A stretch of DNA of 6,866 nt from a virus (lineage: Duplodnaviria > Heunggongvirae > Uroviricota > Caudoviricetes). Positions 1-6,866 of this stretch are shown here, piece by piece. The position numbers and the translations under genes are program-made. Numbering within the stretch: the first letter of the stretch is position 1; every line of letters begins with the position of its first letter. The stretch lies in the IMG/VR virus record IMGVR_UViG_2529292909_000014, one strand, 5' to 3'. The notes under the pieces are model-generated. The model searched no databases and had not been told where the DNA came from. It saw only the letters and a program-made list of their open reading frames with translations.

Positions 1-206
1 TTATTGAAATTCAAGGGTAAAGGTTGCCGAAGCCCTCACCAGTCCCGGATTGACGGACTTCTGAGTTGACTTCAGACGAGCGGAGTAAGGCAAAATATTG
101 TTCTGTTCTGGTACCAGTGGGATCCACTGCATCCCGGCATGAAGATCATTCAGTTTCACCGGACGCATATTTGCGTCCAATATTTCTATTATAGCGCGGC
201 GATTTT

Positions 207-273
207 TTTGATACCGATTTGCATTTCATTTGATACCGCTGAAAAACGCCGATACGCAACTTATTTGATACTA
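207..273. repeat. Three direct copies of TTTGATAC (starting 207, 229, 264) plus a degenerate CCGATAC (249), downstream of the mom-like gene
   Basis: Read directly: tttgataccgatttg / tttgataccgctg / ccgatacgc / tttgatactaaatcggcg. Function unknown. Confidence 0.35.
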
Positions 274-317
274 AATCGGCGCTTTTCTTTTGAGTTTTAG
301 AATGAGTTTTTAAGCGT

Positions 318-1055
318 TCATTCACTCTCTTTCAAACCAGTTTTAACTGTTTGTGGTTTTGGGTAAGGCTGGACTTTGAATAGCTTTGTGTTAAGGCGTT
401 TTCTGGCTCTCTTGTCCAGAAACCGGATGTAACGAAACTGACGGAATTTATGAACACTGGCTCTGTCGATATTAGCCCGCAGATGTTCACCTCGCTGTCC
501 TCCTCGTTTGATTGCATTCTTGCAAATCTCGTGATACCACTCGCCATCAAGTTCATAGAATGTTGTTTCATGACTGCCTACATAATCAAAATTGCTTGCC
601 TGGTACACGACACCAAGACAGCCACAACGCTCATCTGCAAACGACTGAACCCACTGCACCTGCGGATAAAGTTGTCTGATTAGTTTGAGCGCGTAACTGA
701 TTGCCCTTGATTCGGAGTTTCTCGGCATACAGTCATGCAGCCATAACCGGTTAAGCTCCATATATTCGCGGTTCTGCGTGCCAGTTACGACGCGTGCACC
801 ATTGTTTGGATTAAGGGCATAACCCCATTGCATTACGCCAACCAGCTCCCGTTCTGAAAATATGCCCAGATGAAGGTAGGAATTATTTACGAAACGATGG
901 CTGTAATGTTTATTGACGACGACCAGCCGGGCCAGCCAGCAACTTATTGTCTCAACCCGTAACTCACGGGAGCCATAACCGACGATATTGTCGTTATAGT
1001 GAATAAGTTCAGGCGTGCTGATGATACGGGATGTAACTTGCTTTCTGTTCCCCAC
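318..1055 (-). CDS. mom: Mom-like DNA modification (anti-restriction) protein, about 245 aa; proposed GTG start at 1055
   Basis: Long minus-strand ORF immediately downstream of and overlapping the com homologue, as in phage Mu. The track ORF starts at ATG 1250 but would overlap com entirely; there is no in-frame ATG after com. GTG at 1055-1053 is preceded by AAGGA about 9 nt upstream and gives a Mu-Mom-like size. Identity rests on com linkage and size, not on aligned Mom sequence. Confidence 0.6.
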
Positions 1056-1209
1056 GACAGGATTTCCTTGTGTATGTGGGGTGCTCTGTGGCGCTCTGAG
1101 ATGTGATTTGATTGAGGGTTTTACAGCGCGGACATTTAACTTCCAGATAACTGAAGCTGGCTCGTGCCAGTAGCTTGTTACAATGTCGGCACCGTATGTT
1201 TCGATACAT
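1009..1209 (-). CDS. com: Com-like zinc-finger translational activator of mom, 66 aa
   Basis: [14 protein letters not shown]...EVKCPRCK...EHPT matches the phage Mu Com pattern (IRCKNCNKLL...IRCPRCK...EHPT) as recalled. Strong SD AGGAGG about 8 nt upstream of ATG 1209. The 81-aa track ORF from 1254 is an in-frame upstream extension without an RBS. Confidence 0.85.
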
Positions 1210-1252
1210 GGCCGCATAACCTCCTGCTTTGTTGTTGATATCTTTATCACTC

Positions 1253-1277
1253 AATCGATCGACAAAAACGATCGATT
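1253..1277. promoter_or_regulatory. Perfect 9-bp inverted repeat AATCGATCG-N7-CGATCGATT with two Dam (GATC) sites, 44 bp upstream of com; third GATC (TGATCA) at 1339-1342
   Basis: Palindrome read directly. In Mu, mom transcription depends on Dam methylation of upstream GATC sites (established knowledge), so a methylation-sensitive operator is a reasonable inference. Confidence 0.45.
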
Positions 1278-1465
1278 TGATTTATTTAATTGATACAACA
1301 AATAACACGAAATGTCATTAGCGAAAATTTATGAGTTTGATCACTAATTTTAAACGGTGCTGTAACGCATAAGTGCTGAATGATTGTACATTTGAATACC
1401 GCAAAGCAAACAAATCAACTAATTTATAGAAGTCAATTGGTTAATTGCCAGCGTAAGAGGCTGCT

Positions 1466-1759
1466 ATGGACAATCATGTAACGACGAGAAATCGAAAAAT
1501 GATTGAAAATGCGGAAATCTATAATGATTATTTTTCCGATTATTCAGATGCCTGCAAATACAGTTCGAGTGCGGGAGAGTTCATATGCTTCAACTTTTTT
1601 ATTAAATCTTATGTTTTTCCTCCACAGCAAGAAGATGGAGGTGTGCCACCTCCTGAAATCACTTTGCACCGTATAGCCTCCGTCTCAATGATGGAGCAAC
1701 AGGCTAATGAGCTGTATAGCATTCTGGGAACGATTCTACAAAAGCGTGAATCGGACTAA
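1466..1759 (+). CDS. Hypothetical protein, 97 aa, divergent from com-mom
   Basis: ORF with SD AAGAGG 6 nt upstream of the ATG; no recognisable motif. Confidence 0.5.
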   Translation: MDNHVTTRNRKMIENAEIYNDYFSDYSDACKYSSSAGEFICFNFFIKSYVFPPQQEDGGVPPPEITLHRIASVSMMEQQANELYSILGTILQKRESD

Positions 1760-1893
1760 TGATACCGGTTCATTTGCCTGCCCGGATGGGGAAGCAGGAT
1801 TGACTGCTCCATAAGCAGCTATATTTCTGAATACGAAATACTATCCAGCGATTACATATGGCTGGATAGCGGCAAAGATGTTTTCATTAGTGT

Positions 1894-1921
1894 CAAACCG
1901 GCAGAGGACACCACCGGTTTG
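1894..1921. terminator. Stem-loop CAAACCGG-N12-CCGGTTTG 5 nt after the stop of the 84-aa gene; a second hairpin CTATCCAGC-N11-GCTGGATAG lies at 1841-1869
   Basis: Inverted repeats read directly; no clean U-tract on either strand, so terminator function is uncertain. Confidence 0.3.
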
Positions 1922-1926
1922 TATTG

Positions 1927-2181
1927 TTACATCATGGTACTGTCAGTTCCGGGCTGAGCCGGGTCTGGTTGCTCTGGCTGCGCGTCGGTTTTCGGCTCAT
2001 TATCAGCATCACTGGCCGCAACTGCTGGCCCAATAAGTTTTGCCAGCACTTCATCAACGTAAGTGTCGATTTGTGCCTCAAAATCCTTGCGGACCTGCGC
2101 TTTCAGCAACTTATTTACTTCACCGGAATACAGTGCCTGTTTTACCAGGTCTTCAGTGACGGTGCCTTTAATTTCTGGCAT
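1927..2181 (-). CDS. Hypothetical small acidic protein, 84 aa
   Basis: Strong SD AAGGAGGA 6-7 nt upstream of the ATG; helical N-terminal half, acidic and Pro-rich tail. Confidence 0.65.
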   Translation of the reverse strand: MPEIKGTVTEDLVKQALYSGEVNKLLKAQVRKDFEAQIDTYVDEVLAKLIGPAVAASDADNEPKTDAQPEQPDPAQPGTDSTMM

Positions 2182-2216
2182 GTATATCCTCCTTATGCGG
2201 GAATAAAGCCCTGCAA

Positions 2217-2420
2217 TCAGGGCTGGGTCGGGTCTTTTGGGAGCGGAGTTACCTGCGCTGTTTTACTGAGTTTTTCAGCTGCTGCGTCCTCAATTTTGCG
2301 GCGAACATAATTTCTGATGGCCTTATAACCACCACTCACCAGATATAACGCACATACTGCCGTGCAGAAATACAATAAATAAGCTGTAAAAATGTCATTA
2401 TCCCTCCCAATTATTGACAT
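2217..2420 (-). CDS. Hypothetical small single-pass membrane protein, 67 aa as written; start uncertain
   Basis: Hydrophobic stretch FTAYLLYFCTAVCALYLV followed by basic residues; sits 35 nt upstream of the 84-aa gene. ATG 2420 has no good SD, whereas ATG 2398 has SD GGGAGGG but is one base out of frame (see findings). Confidence 0.4.
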   Translation of the reverse strand: MSIIGRDNDIFTAYLLYFCTAVCALYLVSGGYKAIRNYVRRKIEDAAAEKLSKTAQVTPLPKDPTQP

Positions 2421-2494
2421 GGTGTTGACACCGGTAATATCTGTTAGGTAAAAAGGTGCACTGCATTTTTTGCTTTGGATATAACGATCTTTTT

Positions 2495-2535
2495 GCCGCC
2501 GGTTTCTTGTTTTCCCTTACCGGCGGCATTTTTTT
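2495..2535 (+). terminator. Rho-independent terminator, plus orientation: GCCGCCGGT-N15-ACCGGCGGC followed by T7
   Basis: 9-bp GC-rich stem followed by ATTTTTTT on the plus strand; on the minus strand the stem is followed by AAAAAG, so it is unidirectional and opposite to the flanking genes. Confidence 0.6.
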
Positions 2536-2542
2536 ATCCTGC

Positions 2543-4597
2543 TTACGCGTTATTCACTTCCACCACGATACTGTCAATCAGTACCGGGTAAGTCGCATTT
2601 TTAGTGATATCGGTCACGCGCAACTTGTCTGCCGTAAACGTGCCGACCGGAGACTGCGACAGCATGAATGGTGTCCCGTCCTTACCATCAATGACCGGCG
2701 TCACCTCAATACTGTTGTTACCGGCAAAACGGAAGCCCAGCGTATGCCATTCGTTATTAAATGCGCCGAATGACCCCAGCTTCGTGTTCTGCGCCGTGTT
2801 TCCTTTGTGATACATCACGTTAAGGTCTGTGGCATCGCTCTGTACGTAGAACGATGCCAGCAGGTTATGACCGGCATTTCCTTCCAGAGTAACCCCTTGC
2901 GGCAGGGCAGAAACCGGCCAGTACAGCGCCAGTGCGTACTGATTAGCCGTAAGCGCGCCATCGAGTTTAAAACGACAACTGACAAGACCACCTTTACCCA
3001 GCAGGTCCGCACCATTACCAGCATCATGCTCAAGGTACCAGGGGGCTCTTCCTGTTTCCTTGGTCAGTTTCATTGCCTTACCCCCGCTGGCTCCGGCATC
3101 ATCCACGATTTGAGCCTTGCCACCTCCGGCAGCCCAACCCTGTGGTGTCAACCGTCCTTCAGACTCAGATGCCCGGTAAGCAAATAGCGTACTCATCGTC
3201 GTGGTGTCTGCGGGTGGCGTGGACGGTTTTGATGGTGTATCAGGTGACGGCTTCTCATCCGGTGGTGTCACGGTCTGCCCGCGCATCAGTTCAGCCGTGC
3301 GCCCTGCATGGAGCATAATAGCTGAGGCCAGACGGTCTGAAATGACGCCCCTGCGTGCCCATGAGCTGAAATGGCTGTCACGCTGTGTCGAAACAAAACT
3401 GCCCTGGGTTCGGGATGCTGCACCGTAATACCCGACAGCCACAATATCCGGGTCTTCCGCCGGAGCATTCGTTGGCGTGCTCTGTCCATTCTCATCCGTC
3501 AGGAACGGTACAAAGAAAATTTTCTGTGCTTCCTTGCCTTTGTAGCCACCGTATACTGCCTCATATTTATCGGTGCCAGCGTTTTTCCAGTAATACGTGG
3601 TATCACCGCAAATCCACGGCACCGTGGTGGCATTTCCACTCACGCACTGCGCAGCAAGCGGAGCCAGGTCAGTTCTGAACTGCTGAACCATGGCCGTGAA
3701 TAAACTATTATGCTGCTGGCTTCCTGAGGCAAGGTCTGCCTCTCCCTGCATCCAGACCACAGCCAGAAGTTTGTTTTCGGGTTTTTCGCCAGCGCGACTT
3801 TGGTGCGGCTTACCAGGTCCTGATACAGAGGTTTACCGGCCCCCCAGCGTGAAGAATCAGCGGAAGCACCGCTGGCCTCACTGAATGAGCCGTCGGCTCC
3901 AGTGGTGAATGCTGACCCGCCACGACAACAGGGCACCAGAAGTATCCCGGCATTCTGTGGGATATAGGGAAGCAGTTTTTTGGCAATATGCAACCCCTGA
4001 CCGACAGTTCCCGTACTGGCCTTTTGCCAGATCAGCTTTCGGGTGGTTTATCCCGCTCATATCCTGAACATCATGCAGGCAGTGGTCTGCCGGAATGATG
4101 TCGTTGTATGTACACGACGTACCGTTGGGCGTTACCGTACTGCGGCGTGCCAGTTGCTTAATGCGTGGGTCCGGGCGGTCAAACGAATCCGGTAACGGCA
4201 GCCCCTCGCCGTAGGCCATGCCATTTGACTGACCCGCGAGAATGACAACAAAGTAATATTCCGGCTCTGAACTGCTGCCATTCGTGCTACCGGAAGGCCC
4301 GGCGTTATCCGGTGCATTCCAGTCGGAGGGCGTGAGCGTTCCGGCCACGTCAGATGTGATTGGAATGATGCCAGTCACGCCTGAACTGGTGATTTCTGCA
4401 CTGGGATTACCGGATACCGGCATTACCCATAATGGCTCTTTCGTGCTGAAGCGGATCACGCAGTCTGCGAAGGTGATCCCCCCTTTATTACCCGAAGGGC
4501 GGAAAGGGCTTTCAATAAATGCCACCGTGCCACCGGCAACCTTGACTGAAAACTCTCCGGGCATGGCGGAGAGCATTTTCCACTTGGAGTCTGACAT
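2543..4597 (-). pseudogene. NanS-like sialate O-acetylesterase (SGNH/SASA family) with N- and C-terminal extensions; reading frame broken twice
   Basis: Track ORFs 3878..4597, 3640..3993 and 2543..3760 join into one protein carrying NanS-type motifs (ILAGQSNGMAYGEGLPLPD, VPCCRGGSAFT, VVWMQGEADL, GDTTYYWK, NAPAEDPD, SHFSSWARRGVISDR). Frame breaks: a 1-bp insertion near 4008-4012 and a 1-bp deletion in the T-run 3774-3777. Confidence 0.8.
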
Positions 4598-4672
4598 CGT
4601 CTTTTCTGCCTGTTTCTGAATTAAACAGAGTCAGAATAGCGACCGCTGAAAAATATGTGTTTTGCGGAAATT

Positions 4673-4702
4673 CAAAAAAGCGTCACGGTACTTTTGGTGA
4701 CG
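4673..4702 (-). terminator. Possible terminator at the end of the invertase gene: CGTCAC-N10-GTGACG followed by CTTTTTTG
   Basis: 6-bp stem overlapping the invertase stop codon, followed by a U6 tract on the minus strand; the stem is short. Confidence 0.35.
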
Positions 4703-5253
4703 GAGCTGGTGAGGCAGGAAAATAACGATAAAGGGTGGAAAGGCCAATATCAAATATCAGTGCGATTTGTTTACGGGACTCGCCATTAGCCAGCAAACGG
4801 GCGATTTGCTCCCGCTCTTTCTCTGTCAGTTTCTGAGGTCTGCCGCCATGACGCCCTGAGCACGGGCAGCAGCAAGACCCGCGCGTGTACGTTCAATAAT
4901 GAGTTCCCGCTCCATTTCCGCCAGCGCGCCCATTATATGGAAAAAGAAACGTCCCATGGGAGTGGATGTATCAATATTGTCCGTAATGCTGCGGAAGTTA
5001 ACGCCGCGTTGCCGGAGTTCTTCTGTTAAAAGGACAAGGTGCTGCATACTGCGTCCAAGGCGATCCAGTTTCCAGACCAGCAGGGTATCCCCTGGCCGGA
5101 GTCGCTTTAATGCGCGTTTAAGTCCGGGACGCTCCCTTGTCTTACCGCTTATTCTGTCTTCGAAAACAGCTCACATCCTGCACATTCCAGCGCATTTCTT
5201 TGTAGCGCCGTATTCTGGTCATTTGTTGACACCCTGATATACCCAATCAGCAT
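4683..5253 (-). pseudogene. Hin/Gin/Pin/Cin-family serine DNA invertase, disrupted by two 1-bp deletions
   Basis: Three frames read MLIGYIRVSTNDQNTALQRNALECAGCE / FEDRISGKTRERPGLKRALKRLRPGDTLLVWKLDRLGRSMQHL...FFFHIMGALAEMERELIIERTRAGLAAARAQG / GRHGGRPQKLTEKEREQIARLLANG..., together a full-length invertase. Deletions lie near 5161-5170 and 4850-4860. SD AAGGA upstream of ATG 5253. Confidence 0.85.
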
Positions 5254-5318
5254 ACGATTTCCTTATTATAAAAAGCCGGAATTGTCGCATGAGGAATAAA
5301 ACAGAGTTAATCCTGGCT

Positions 5319-5344
5319 TTCCTGAAAACCTCGGTTTACGGGAA
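5319..5344. other. Invertase crossover site, left: TTCCTGAAAACC-TC-GGTTTACGGGAA
   Basis: 26-bp imperfect palindrome; the left half differs from the hixL half-site TTCTTGAAAACC at one position and the whole site resembles gix. It lies 66 bp upstream of the invertase start. Confidence 0.7.
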
Positions 5345-5400
5345 ACGGTAAACAGGGCGGCGAATGCTCTGCCATCGGACGGCACCGCCGTTGCCGCGAA
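5333..5400. repeat. Inverted repeat, left arm (68 bp, one mismatch to the right arm)
   Basis: The reverse complement of 6580..6647 matches 5333..5400 except position 5368; patchy similarity continues inward to about 5451. Confidence 0.85.
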
Positions 5401-5692
5401 TAGACTCGCCACCCCAAGAAATATTAATGGGGTTCCCTTTGACGGGACGAAGGACATAAACATCACTTCTGGTATAACACAGCAGGATGCGGATTCCCGA
5501 TATATCCAGGATATCAGGCTGGGAGCAGAGAACAGGCAGGTAATGTACGGTGGGGCATATTACTCTGCGTACGGTAATGTTATGGCAGGCCTGCAGATTG
5601 ACAGTAAAGTTGATGCTTCAAACGATTTTATAGCATTCAGACCCCTGCAAAAATTAGTCGGAGGTACATGGATTACGGTATCTCAGTTATAA
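5342..5692 (+). CDS. Silent alternative tail-fibre C-terminal cassette (no start codon; expressible only after inversion fuses it to the constant part)
   Basis: Plus-strand frame is open from the crossover site to TAA 5690-5692 and encodes ...[40 protein letters not shown]...; no ATG or RBS at its 5' end; followed 51 bp later by tfa. Confidence 0.65.
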   Translation, partial: ETVNRAANALPSDGTAVAANRLATPRNINGVPFDGTKDINITSGITQQDADSRYIQDIRLGAENRQVMYGGAYYSAYGNVMAGLQIDSKVDASNDFIAFRPLQKLVGGTWITVSQL

Positions 5693-5743
5693 ATAGTCAG
5701 TAAATAATATATTTTAAAACAGATTTATTTCCAGGAGGATTTT

Positions 5744-6265
5744 ATGGAACTAAAAAATATAACCCGTTATTATCCTGAAAATATGCCATATGGTAATAAT
5801 GTTCAGTATTTCCAGAGTGAAGATGGTAAGGATTTCTACGAATCCCTGCCATTATTCACCAAAAAATATAAACTTTGCATAACACCTGACAGCGGCGTTA
5901 TCTGCTCAATATCACAGGACGCCTCGGCGCTGTATCCTGCGGGGTTTTCTGTGGTTGAGGTCGATGAACTCCCTGAAGGCACGGATATTTCAGGAAACTG
6001 GAAGTTTGATAATGGCATAATCTCCCGTATTCCGGTTAACTACGCAAGAAAACTGGAAGCAATGCGCCAGTCATATCTTAATCAGGCATATGAAAAAATT
6101 AATGACTGGAGAACGGAGCTACAACTGGGCACCATCAGCGATGAAGACAGAGCAGCACTTACCCAATGGATGGCATACATCAGTCAGGTGAAGAAAATGG
6201 AACTACCCGCCATTAAAACAGAAGCTGAATTTAACGCCATTAAATGGCCTGAGCAGCCACAGTAA
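5744..6265 (+). CDS. Tail-fibre assembly protein (Tfa/U family), 173 aa
   Basis: SD CAGGAGGA 6 nt upstream of the ATG; C-terminal ...DWRTELQLGTISDEDRAALTQWMAYISQV...IKWPEQP fits the conserved Tfa C-terminal pattern. Confidence 0.85.
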   Translation: MELKNITRYYPENMPYGNNVQYFQSEDGKDFYESLPLFTKKYKLCITPDSGVICSISQDASALYPAGFSVVEVDELPEGTDISGNWKFDNGIISRIPVNYARKLEAMRQSYLNQAYEKINDWRTELQLGTISDEDRAALTQWMAYISQVKKMELPAIKTEAEFNAIKWPEQPQ

Positions 6266-6268
6266 TAA

Positions 6269-6288
6269 AGAAGGCCGGAAGGCCTTCT
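6269..6288. terminator. Hairpin AGAAGGCC-GGAA-GGCCTTCT between the convergent tfa and tail-fibre genes
   Basis: 8-bp stem with a tetraloop; minus-strand downstream sequence is U-rich (UUAUUACU); no clean U-tract on the plus strand. Confidence 0.45.
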
Positions 6289-6296
6289 GAATATCA

Positions 6297-6866
6297 TTAT
6301 ATACTTGCAGCCGTCACCCATGCTCCATTTAACAGATACTGCAACGGCCGGTAATACACGCCGCCGACGTTATCTGCCGTATTCTTACCGACATCCTGTA
6401 CTTTAATTCCGGTAAGAACATTGCCGCCCCCCAGATTCAGATCCCAGCTTTCCCATGTTCCGGGCATATGTGCGGTCACCGACCCCAGTCTTATGGCGGT
6501 TACTGTTCCTGATGAGATAGTGATATCCTGCGTCCCGTCAAAGGGAACACCATTAATTGTGTGGGCATTTGCCAGCCTGTTCGCGGCAACGGCGGTGCCG
6601 TCCGATGGCAGGGCATTCGCCGCCCTGTTTACCGTTTCCCGTAAACCGACGTTATCGATAAAAGCCCCTTTATCCGGAATGTCTGCGCCGTTCTGCTCCC
6701 TGCGCAGGTAACGGTTATCACCTTCGCTTTTGCTGTAAACATCCAGATTATTACGGGCGGTTCCCTTATTCTCCAGGTCGGCGAGATTCTGATCCTTCGC
6801 CAGGGCATTAACGTCAGCGGGACCAAGACCGTTTTTTGTGGCAAGCGTCCCCAGACCAAGATAACC
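6297..6866 (-). CDS. Tail-fibre protein, 3' part (5' end beyond the window), carrying the currently expressed tip
   Basis: Minus-strand frame is open from the window edge to TAA 6297-6299: [54 protein letters not shown]...[42 protein letters not shown]...AASI. Typical tail-fibre motifs; the crossover site is embedded at codons GLRE. Confidence 0.85.
6580..6647. repeat. Inverted repeat, right arm (68 bp)
   Basis: Reverse complement of 5333..5400 with one mismatch. Confidence 0.85.
6636..6661. other. Invertase crossover site, right: TTCCCGTAAACC-GA-CGTTATCGATAA
   Basis: Inner half is identical to the left site's inner half in inverted orientation and the core dinucleotide is complementary; the outer half has diverged. 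Lies inside the tail-fibre coding sequence. Confidence 0.65.

Follow-up and report, generated by a model that had tools for sequence, protein, structure and literature searches.

Invertase frameshifts in the Mu-type tail-fibre switch of an Escherichia coli DEC6D prophage are most probably draft miscalls

Has a tail-fibre inversion switch lost its own recombinase? This question is raised by the window analysed here, a 6,866-nt stretch of DNA in which a Gin-type invertase gene is, as deposited, frameshifted next to an invertible segment. The window comes from draft contig AIFY01000030.1 of E. coli DEC6D, where a Mu-like prophage has inserted into ydeS, and covers the right end of that prophage. 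The source assembly is a 2012 draft genome, presumably the product of a 454-era sequencing project. The features of the window are listed in Table 1.

The match between the window and its prophage relatives begins at position 185-190 in all of them, and the chromosomal insertion site is different in nearly every genome. The relatives carry Mu-like baseplate, tail and head genes. In the full prophage of 23CRST047 a Mu gpT-family head protein and Mu gp48-type and other baseplate genes are found. The presence of mom and com at the right end, the Mu-type structural genes and the many unrelated insertion sites identify the element, at the level of sequence, as a Mu-like transposable prophage. The same ydeS insertion was sought by way of the truncated 55-aa YdeS, which is called in ~1,900 blocks representing unrelated ydeS disruptions; the prophage was present at 0 of 10 such loci among the matches listed. 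A look-up of Mom returned many relatives, none inserted at ydeS. A promoter scan gave 6 matches as compared to 3.9 +/- 1.9 in shuffled sequence, which is not above expectation, and hence no promoter is claimed.

Table 1. Positions of host, prophage and switch features in the 6,866-nt window.
Feature	Position	Strand	Basis or remark
Host flank: 3' part of ydeS (fimbrial gene), interrupted by the prophage	1..189	-	100% identical to ydeS of many complete E. coli genomes
mom, DNA-modification gene of Mu-like phages	318..1055	-	Pfam Mom, E 8e-78; annotated Mom in relatives
com, translational activator of mom	1009..1209	-	Pfam Zn_ribbon_Com, E 7.5e-13
DUF826 gene, cargo absent from Mu	1927..2181	-	Gene call on source contig and Pfam; Pfam DUF826 on a relative's copy
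DUF1378 gene (end coordinate approximate)	2217..2399	-	Private 1-bp deletion after 2376 (A4->A3)
SASA/DUF6645 sialate-O-acetylesterase-like gene, split here	2543..4597	-	Private indels: -T after 3773 (T5->T4), +T at 4008
Gin-type serine invertase gene (571 nt; intact length 573)	4683..5253	-	Private 1-bp deletions after 4853 and 5162
gix-like site, invertase side	5319..5344		TTCCTGAAAACC TC GGTTTACGGGAA; central TC at 5331-5332
Inverted-repeat arms inside the segment	5331..5409 and 6571..6649		Repeat search and alignment
Sv', silent alternative fibre C-terminus, 119 aa	5333..5692	+	In-silico inversion; homologous to P2 gpH-type fibre C-termini
U'-like tail-fibre assembly chaperone	5744..6265	+	Pfam Caudo_TAP, E 5e-19
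GC-rich hairpin between convergent U' and Sv genes	6269..6288		Repeat search
Sv, fibre C-terminus continuous with the constant part	6297..6649	-	Open frame 6866->6297; homologous to SfMu and P2 fibre C-termini
gix-like site, constant-fibre side	6636..6661		TTCCCGTAAACC GA CGTTATCGATAA; central GA at 6648-6649
Sc, constant fibre part	6650..6866	-	Continues past the window end, where the source contig ends too

Two 26-bp inverted sites had been proposed from a sequence-only reading of the window, and both are present at the positions given in Table 1. They have a common inner half-site and the same central dinucleotide. With a degenerate Mu-gix pattern allowing up to three mismatches, matches in the window were obtained at these two sites only, and 0 of 200 shuffled sequences gave any match. 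The 14-mer TTCCCGTAAACCGA likewise occurs in the window at the two sites only. When aligned to the actual Mu sites (NC_000929), 22/26 and 21/26 positions match, so that the resemblance to gix on which the reading had been staked is borne out. Inverted repeats of 86 nt at 93% identity (5324-5409 / 6571-6656) were reported by the repeat program, together with a second pair of 50 nt at 82%. Identity begins exactly at the central dinucleotide (5331) and extends over 38 perfect bases, one mismatch and 32 perfect bases; the previously given repeat length of 68 bp was thus about right.

Between the central dinucleotides the invertible segment measures 1,319 bp, in agreement with the ~1.3 kb and two alternative tail-fibre tips described earlier. 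When inversion was carried out in silico, Sv and Sv' were both in frame with the constant part. From the assembled orientation, Sv is the tip predicted to be expressed at present. The U'-like gene is the sole chaperone gene in the segment and has the same orientation as Sv', and the hairpin is a probable bidirectional terminator. In relatives the complete tail-fibre gene encodes 293 aa. A mixed-orientation culture was considered as the reason for the contig end at 6866 and was rejected, since the break lies 205 bp outside the gix site and not at the repeats.

The segment is found in both orientations among relatives with an intact invertase. The flipped junction, made in silico, has matches of at least 99.8% identity in four complete genomes. 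In FORC_069 and FORC_043 the flanks are identical and the 1,319-bp segment of one is the exact reverse complement of the other, with 0 mismatches. Every repeat polymorphism moves with the segment, which places the exchange no more than 19 bp from the gix centre. These comparisons indicate that the segment is inverted by exchange at the sites, as seen in relatives rather than in DEC6D.

Compared to the intact 573-nt gene, the deposited invertase gene is two bases short: a C is missing after 4853 (C4->C3) and an A after 5162 (A5->A4). The frame is interrupted and only fragments of 33, 73 and 37 aa are encoded; the earlier statement that the gene carries two 1-bp deletions and yields no full-length product is true of the deposited sequence. 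With the two bases restored, the gene shows zero substitutions relative to intact copies and encodes a 190-aa protein identical to WP_000904914.1. The repaired protein contains a Pfam Resolvase domain (1.6e-51) and a C-terminal HTH_7 domain (4.9e-15), retains the catalytic Ser9, matches the Gin crystal structures 4M6F/3UJ3 (E 1e-88) and is 74% identical to Mu Gin.

The offset to Hin numbering was obtained from the match to 1HCR, the chain of which begins at Hin 139. The repaired invertase has K46/R47/K50 and Q150/R153/L154, corresponding to Hin K47/R48/K51 and Q151/R154/L155, which are reported to be unique to Fis-dependent invertases (PMC3798978); its C-terminus, STLYRYFPAS, agrees with that of Hin, as do its Fis-contact residues (PMC3798978). 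A strict Fis consensus scan was not discriminating, and candidate Fis sites were therefore chosen by positional homology with Mu. In Fis-dependent systems, the enhancer with its Fis sites lies within the invertase gene, towards its 5' end, at a distance of ~100 bp from the closer recombination site. Two candidate 15-mers are GTGTCAACAAATGAC and GTGCAGGATGTGAGC, whose midpoints lie ~107 and ~156 bp away from the centre of the gix site. Both align with the same positions in Mu gin, and both stretches double as codons for conserved residues. The spacing of these candidate sites would not be affected by the deletion after 5162.

The mechanism of inversion is established for Gin and Hin. By homology with these systems, dimers of the Gin-like serine invertase would bind the two 26-bp gix-like sites and, together with a Fis-bound enhancer located towards the 5' end of the invertase gene, assemble into an invertasome. 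Both sites would then be cut at the central GA/TC, and rotation of one half by 180 degrees followed by religation would flip the 1,319-bp segment. The flip is predicted to exchange the last ~117-120 residues of the tail fibre, Sv versus Sv', and one orientation would place the sole chaperone gene, U', behind the fibre gene. The orientation in the assembled window is that of Sv.

Private homopolymer-length changes number six in 12 kb of the DEC6D contig, five in the window and one in host DNA. Those in the window are single-base indels after 2376, 3773, 4007, 4853 and 5162, as against 2-4 prophage substitutions. The six changes break the invertase (two), the esterase-like gene (two; 684 aa in relatives), the DUF1378 gene (one; 60 aa in relatives versus 52 aa called on the source contig) and host ydeP (one). 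All eleven relatives that were fetched have the other allele at every one of the five window indel sites that they cover; one of them does not reach the first site. Among the closest complete-genome invertase copies the gene is 573 nt in 19 of 20, and the truncated 73-aa product has a single occurrence among ~15 billion proteins. Over 5,364 bp of host sequence from this contig there are 0 mismatches to strain 300709 and one A6->A5 deletion, which splits ydeP into 710 + 52 aa. Of ten other genomes fetched, nine have a ydeP product of 759 aa or near full length (722); in the tenth the gene is fragmented, as are many neighbouring genes. If indels are assumed to make up 10-30% of spontaneous events, the probability of at least six indels among ten events is 1e-4 to 0.05, and the observed indel to substitution ratio is improbable even under a mismatch-repair-deficient mutation spectrum.

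These results suggest that both invertase deletions most probably arose as miscalled homopolymer lengths in the draft consensus rather than by mutation, and hence that in the real prophage the invertase is most likely intact and the switch functional. An invertase that reads as intact on resequencing was the result named beforehand as counting against a locked switch, and the comparative evidence leans in that direction. The region as a whole is, in our judgement with good confidence, a standard Mu-type G-segment switch on a Mu-like prophage with miscalled bases in its invertase gene. The earlier proposal of a switch that is locked or cross-complemented is probably an artefact, as private homopolymer indels with few substitutions fit miscalls better than decay. 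Both deletions occur in no relative and four more private homopolymer indels lie in the same 12 kb, and the notion of a biologically locked or orphaned switch is accordingly not upheld. Counter to miscalling, a consensus sequence would seldom have an indel about every 2 kb. Indels are also denser in prophage DNA (5 in 6.7 kb) than in host DNA (1 in 5.4 kb), a difference that relaxed selection on prophage genes would likewise produce. Programmed frameshifting and transcriptional slippage were considered as ways to read through the breaks and rejected, because each break would call for its own correction and every relative is simply in frame.

Real, private mutations of DEC6D would mean that no invertase is made and that the fibre switch is fixed in the Sv orientation, where a flip could still be brought about by a Din-family paralogue (e14 Pin-type or another Mu-like copy) or by rare RecA-dependent exchange between the 79-bp repeats. 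The frameshifts do stand in the deposited sequence, and homopolymer slippage is a genuine mutational route too. Moreover, a frameshifted invertase of another lineage is shared by two assemblies and other relatives have deleted theirs, paralogues are widespread (a DNA match occurs in 66% of complete E. coli genomes), and DLI.5a has same-frameshift copies in opposite orientations along with three further paralogous matches. Still, this explanation is unlikely: it requires six independent private homopolymer indels in 12 kb, one of them in the conserved ydeP, with no accompanying substitution in the host DNA or in the invertase, none of the indels is shared by another assembly, and the ratio to substitutions would be improbable even with a mismatch-repair-deficient spectrum. 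The fuller version, in which the frameshifts are genuine and an intact cis-acting switch with a dead recombinase has its fibre choice run by the invertase of another mobile element in the same cell, is unlikely as well. It could also be argued that the repeats and sites are relics of a tail-fibre gene duplication and that the segment never inverts, given that duplicated C-terminal modules are frequent in tail-fibre genes and that DEC6D itself is without observed inversion. The precise inversion at the central dinucleotide between near-identical strains, the flipped junction in four genomes, sites that match Mu gix at 21-22/26 and occur only twice in the window, and the Gin homologue adjoining the segment make this exceedingly improbable.

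The closest known system is the G segment of phage Mu with its Gin invertase. At the right end of the prophage the genes follow the Mu order: constant part of the fibre, invertible segment, invertase, com and mom. The sites share with gixL and gixR the GA centre and the conserved inner GGAAACGGTAAACAGGG, and the alternative fibre C-termini are joined in frame at the site as in Mu. In contrast to Mu, the segment is 1.3 kb, versus ~3.06 kb between the annotated G-segment boundaries, and contains a single chaperone gene in place of the U and U' of Mu. The inverted repeats are ~79 bp; those of Mu are shorter, ~34 bp. A 2.9-kb cargo block (a hypothetical gene, DUF826, DUF1378 and the SASA/DUF6645 esterase) lies between the invertase and com, which directly follow one another in Mu, and the fibre protein of relatives is 293 aa compared to 504 aa (1,515 nt) for Mu S. 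The recombinase subfamily and the 26-bp site architecture are also those of Salmonella Hin/hix, phage P1 Cin/cix and e14 Pin/pix (the Fis-dependent 'Din' group), although Hin switches a promoter and the DEC6D prophage switch a fibre tip. The P1 and e14 segments carry paired chaperone genes. Other E. coli invertase paralogues differ, with DNA identity of only ~75-78%. A phage database search gave no close record. The closest, matching from mom to the fibre region, are the Mu-like prophage inserted in the Stx-converting phages Stx2c_JNE082796 and Stx1_JNE122137 (LC727881, LC727895); the best match is patchy, with 83% DNA identity over 22% of the query, the fibre tips are 57-68% identical, and this is a diverged, different element.

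Gin-type fibre switches, cross-complementation and prophage gene decay are textbook matters, and many complete E. coli genomes already have this prophage annotated with its invertase intact; the biological weight of the locus is thus small. The lesson is one of method: pairs of single-base homopolymer frameshifts within one gene in drafts of that era need a check of the indel to substitution ratio on conserved neighbours before a pseudogene is called. Should the breaks prove genuine, the locus would provide a natural, though modest, case in which another element's recombinase controls a phage phenotype switch in trans.

Mutual complementation is established within the Fis-dependent invertase family, and at least one DNA match to the invertase gene is present in 3,556 of 5,426 complete E. 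coli genomes (66%). The cross-complementation suggested earlier is therefore plausible in general, while its premise of a biologically orphaned DEC6D switch is not supported. Genuine decay of the invertase does appear to occur in this prophage family. In two relatives the invertase and one gix site have been lost by deletion. DLI.5a carries a different invertase frameshift, A5->A4 at the GGAAAAAG run (window position 4941), which is common to an independent assembly at the same insertion site. Its chromosome has two prophage copies with this frameshift, in opposite orientations, and three further paralogous invertase matches; the DLI.5a lineage may be an authentic case of a switch that has a dead invertase of its own and is worked by that of another element.

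The ORF listing and comparison with complete E. coli genomes identify bases ~190-6866 as the right-hand end of a Mu-like transposable prophage. Reverse-complementing the final 6,866 bases of contig AIFY01000030.1 (GCA_000249655.2) of Escherichia coli DEC6D yields the window. Pfam matches give the minus-strand order as fibre constant part, invertible segment, Gin-type invertase, cargo block, com and mom. In the complete relative 23CRST047, the prophage continues with Mu-type genes for baseplate, tail and head. The chromosomal site of the relatives differs in nearly every genome, as expected of a transposing phage.

The DEC6D switch is real and ordinary; it belongs to the Gin/Hin/Cin/Pin class, within which it is a Mu-type G segment. 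The two gix-like sites are mutually inverted, with a common inner half-site and an identical central dinucleotide. When aligned with the Mu gix sites from NC_000929, TTATCCAAAACCTCGGTTTACAGGAA and TTCCTGTAAACCGAGGTTTTGGATAA, they were identical at 22/26 and 21/26 positions, and the 17 bases next inward were also conserved. A degenerate pattern derived from the sites matched the window at these two positions only and had no hit in 200 shuffles. Inverted-repeat identity starts exactly at the central dinucleotide and extends ~79 bases; a repeat-finding tool reported 86 nt at 93%. The segment is 1.3 kb, compared with about 3.06 kb between annotated boundaries in Mu, and unlike Mu it has a single chaperone gene. 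Here a 2.9-kb cargo block separates the invertase from com; Mu has nothing at that place. These differences are all inside the known range of the family.

Features of the prophage right end and adjoining host DNA
Feature	Window position	Description
Host ydeS (fimbrial gene), 3′ part	1-189	100% identity to many genomes
Hypothetical gene, 86 aa	1499-1759	cargo gene within com-DUF826 stretch
Cargo block between invertase and com	1760-4600	SASA/DUF6645 esterase, DUF1378, DUF826
gix-like site, invertase side	5319-5344	TTCCTGAAAACC TC GGTTTACGGGAA
GC-rich hairpin	6269-6288	between convergent genes
gix-like site, constant-fibre side	6636-6661	TTCCCGTAAACC GA CGTTATCGATAA

Between the central dinucleotides the segment measures 1,319 bp. 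The fibre frame is open from 6866 to 6297 in the present orientation. Upon in-silico inversion it continues into the alternative tip at 5333-5692, behind which lies the sole chaperone gene (5744-6265); both tips are thus read in frame with the constant part. Both are homologous to the C-termini of P2 gpH-type and SfMu fibres. Since the segment has a single chaperone gene, only one orientation places it behind the fibre gene. In the window, the tip in use (6297-6649) has no chaperone gene behind it, the only assembly gene being the one at 5744-6265. This chaperone-less orientation predominates, being present in 10/11 fetched relatives, and in 17 of the 22 closest complete-genome records the window's orientation is the only one present.

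To address inversion in relatives, a chimeric sequence of the inverted invertase-side junction was searched against complete genomes. The flipped junction was found full-length at ≥99.8% identity in 4 of them, and the window's orientation in about seventeen. Between FORC_069 and FORC_043 the flanks are identical, and the sequences between the predicted central dinucleotides are exact reverse complements, with 0 mismatches and one homopolymer difference. The repeat arms of this pair diverge from 19 bp inward and every difference travelled with the segment, so that the exchange was confined to the 19 bp adjoining the gix centre. Such a length is below the threshold of ordinary homologous recombination. 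These comparisons show that the switch is functional in this prophage family. The homopolymer difference lies in the coding sequence of Sv, the tip now in frame in the window (segment position 1096, window about 6428-6433), with C5 in FORC_043 and C6 in FORC_069 and the window; the two PacBio-era assemblies are otherwise identical.

Every observed part of the sequence-only reading, namely inverted 26-bp hix/gix-like sites, repeats, two alternative tips and two 1-bp invertase deletions, was borne out. Compared with three relatives, the invertase has one C fewer after 4853 (C4 to C3) and one A fewer after 5162 (A5 to A4), and as deposited encodes fragments only. Restoring both bases gave a 190-aa product identical to WP_000904914.1, with Resolvase and HTH_7 domains, 74% identity to Mu Gin, a match to Gin crystal structures at E 1e-88, and Ser9 retained. 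So are the residues that PMC3798978 describes as specific to Fis-dependent invertases. The deletion after 5162 maps immediately 3′ of the distal candidate Fis site and would leave candidate Fis-site spacing and distance to gix unchanged.

The closest relatives differ from the window by two to four substitutions and five single-base indels, all in homopolymer length (after 2376, 3773, 4007, 4853 and 5162). They strike three genes that are intact elsewhere: DUF1378 once, and the esterase and the invertase two times each. All eleven fetched relatives, which come from independent assemblies and insertion sites, have the other allele at every covered site (one of them stops short of the first); the window's alleles are seen in the source contig only. 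A 573-nt invertase gene is present in 19/20 closest complete-genome copies, and the truncated 73-aa product occurs just once in a collection of about 15 billion proteins. The most telling evidence for an artefact is the adjoining host DNA on the same contig: over 5,364 bp it matches strain 300709 without a single mismatch but has one A6 to A5 deletion (position 10745 of the source contig record), which splits ydeP into 710 + 52 aa. Of ten other genomes fetched, nine have ydeP at 759 aa or close to full length (722); in the tenth it is fragmented, as are many neighbouring genes.

The sequence-only reading had proposed a switch either locked or dependent on cross-complementation, and these alternatives would hold if the DEC6D breaks were real; paralogous invertase sequences occur in 66% of complete E. 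coli genomes. For a consensus, an error every 2 kb is a high rate, and invertase loss is genuine elsewhere in this family: a different frameshift (A5 to A4 at the window 4941 run) is found both in E. coli DLI.5a and in an independent assembly whose ypdB insertion is the same, and two relatives have deleted the invertase along with the adjacent gix site. Genuine deletions would at best be a private decay event in the single strain DEC6D. Against this, the 12 kb of sequence carries six private homopolymer indels and no more than four substitutions. If indels make up 10-30% of spontaneous events, a range assumed by us, a ratio like this has a probability of 1e-4 to 0.05. The indel excess, zero substitutions in the "dead" invertase and two genes hit twice do not look like decay. 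The indels resemble homopolymer miscalls in a draft consensus, and the broken invertase is probably an assembly artefact; the locked or orphaned switch was not borne out. Similar frameshifts are probably numerous across the DEC6D assembly as a whole. The DEC collection was a 2012 pyrosequencing-era project, a point given no weight in this argument.

In DLI.5a, two prophage remnants (L001 7496-8067, L028 2252-2823) share one invertase frameshift, A5 to A4 at the GGAAAAAG run, also present in L019, the independent ypdB-site assembly. The remnants have 0 mismatches across 2.8 kb and oppositely oriented G segments, with the exchange mapped to ≤38 bp from the gix centre. Three further paralogous invertase matches occur in DLI.5a. 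This may be a true broken-invertase switch flipped in trans, or the inversion may predate spread of the frameshift. S1-CAM-01-A (L021 1500-2500) and a second copy in JE86-ST05 (L024 1500-2500) are without the invertase gene, the silent tip Sv′ and the invertase-side gix; they are naturally locked deletion forms retaining an antisense chaperone gene.

The source contig terminates in the fibre constant part, 205 bp past the gix site (window 6866), which suggests that DEC6D has another copy of the upstream fibre/baseplate region, perhaps within a second Mu-like prophage that might provide an invertase as well. In the cargo block, the SASA/DUF6645 sialate-O-acetylesterase-like protein is 684 aa. 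The esterase/DUF1378/DUF826 trio is similar to the nanS-p esterase region found in lambdoid and Stx phages. The block also has weak DNA matches to P2-like phages bearing a DUF1737 annotation. The com-DUF826 stretch (window 1331-1880), in place of which FORC_069-type relatives have unrelated sequence (L003 4330-4870), is a small variable cassette.
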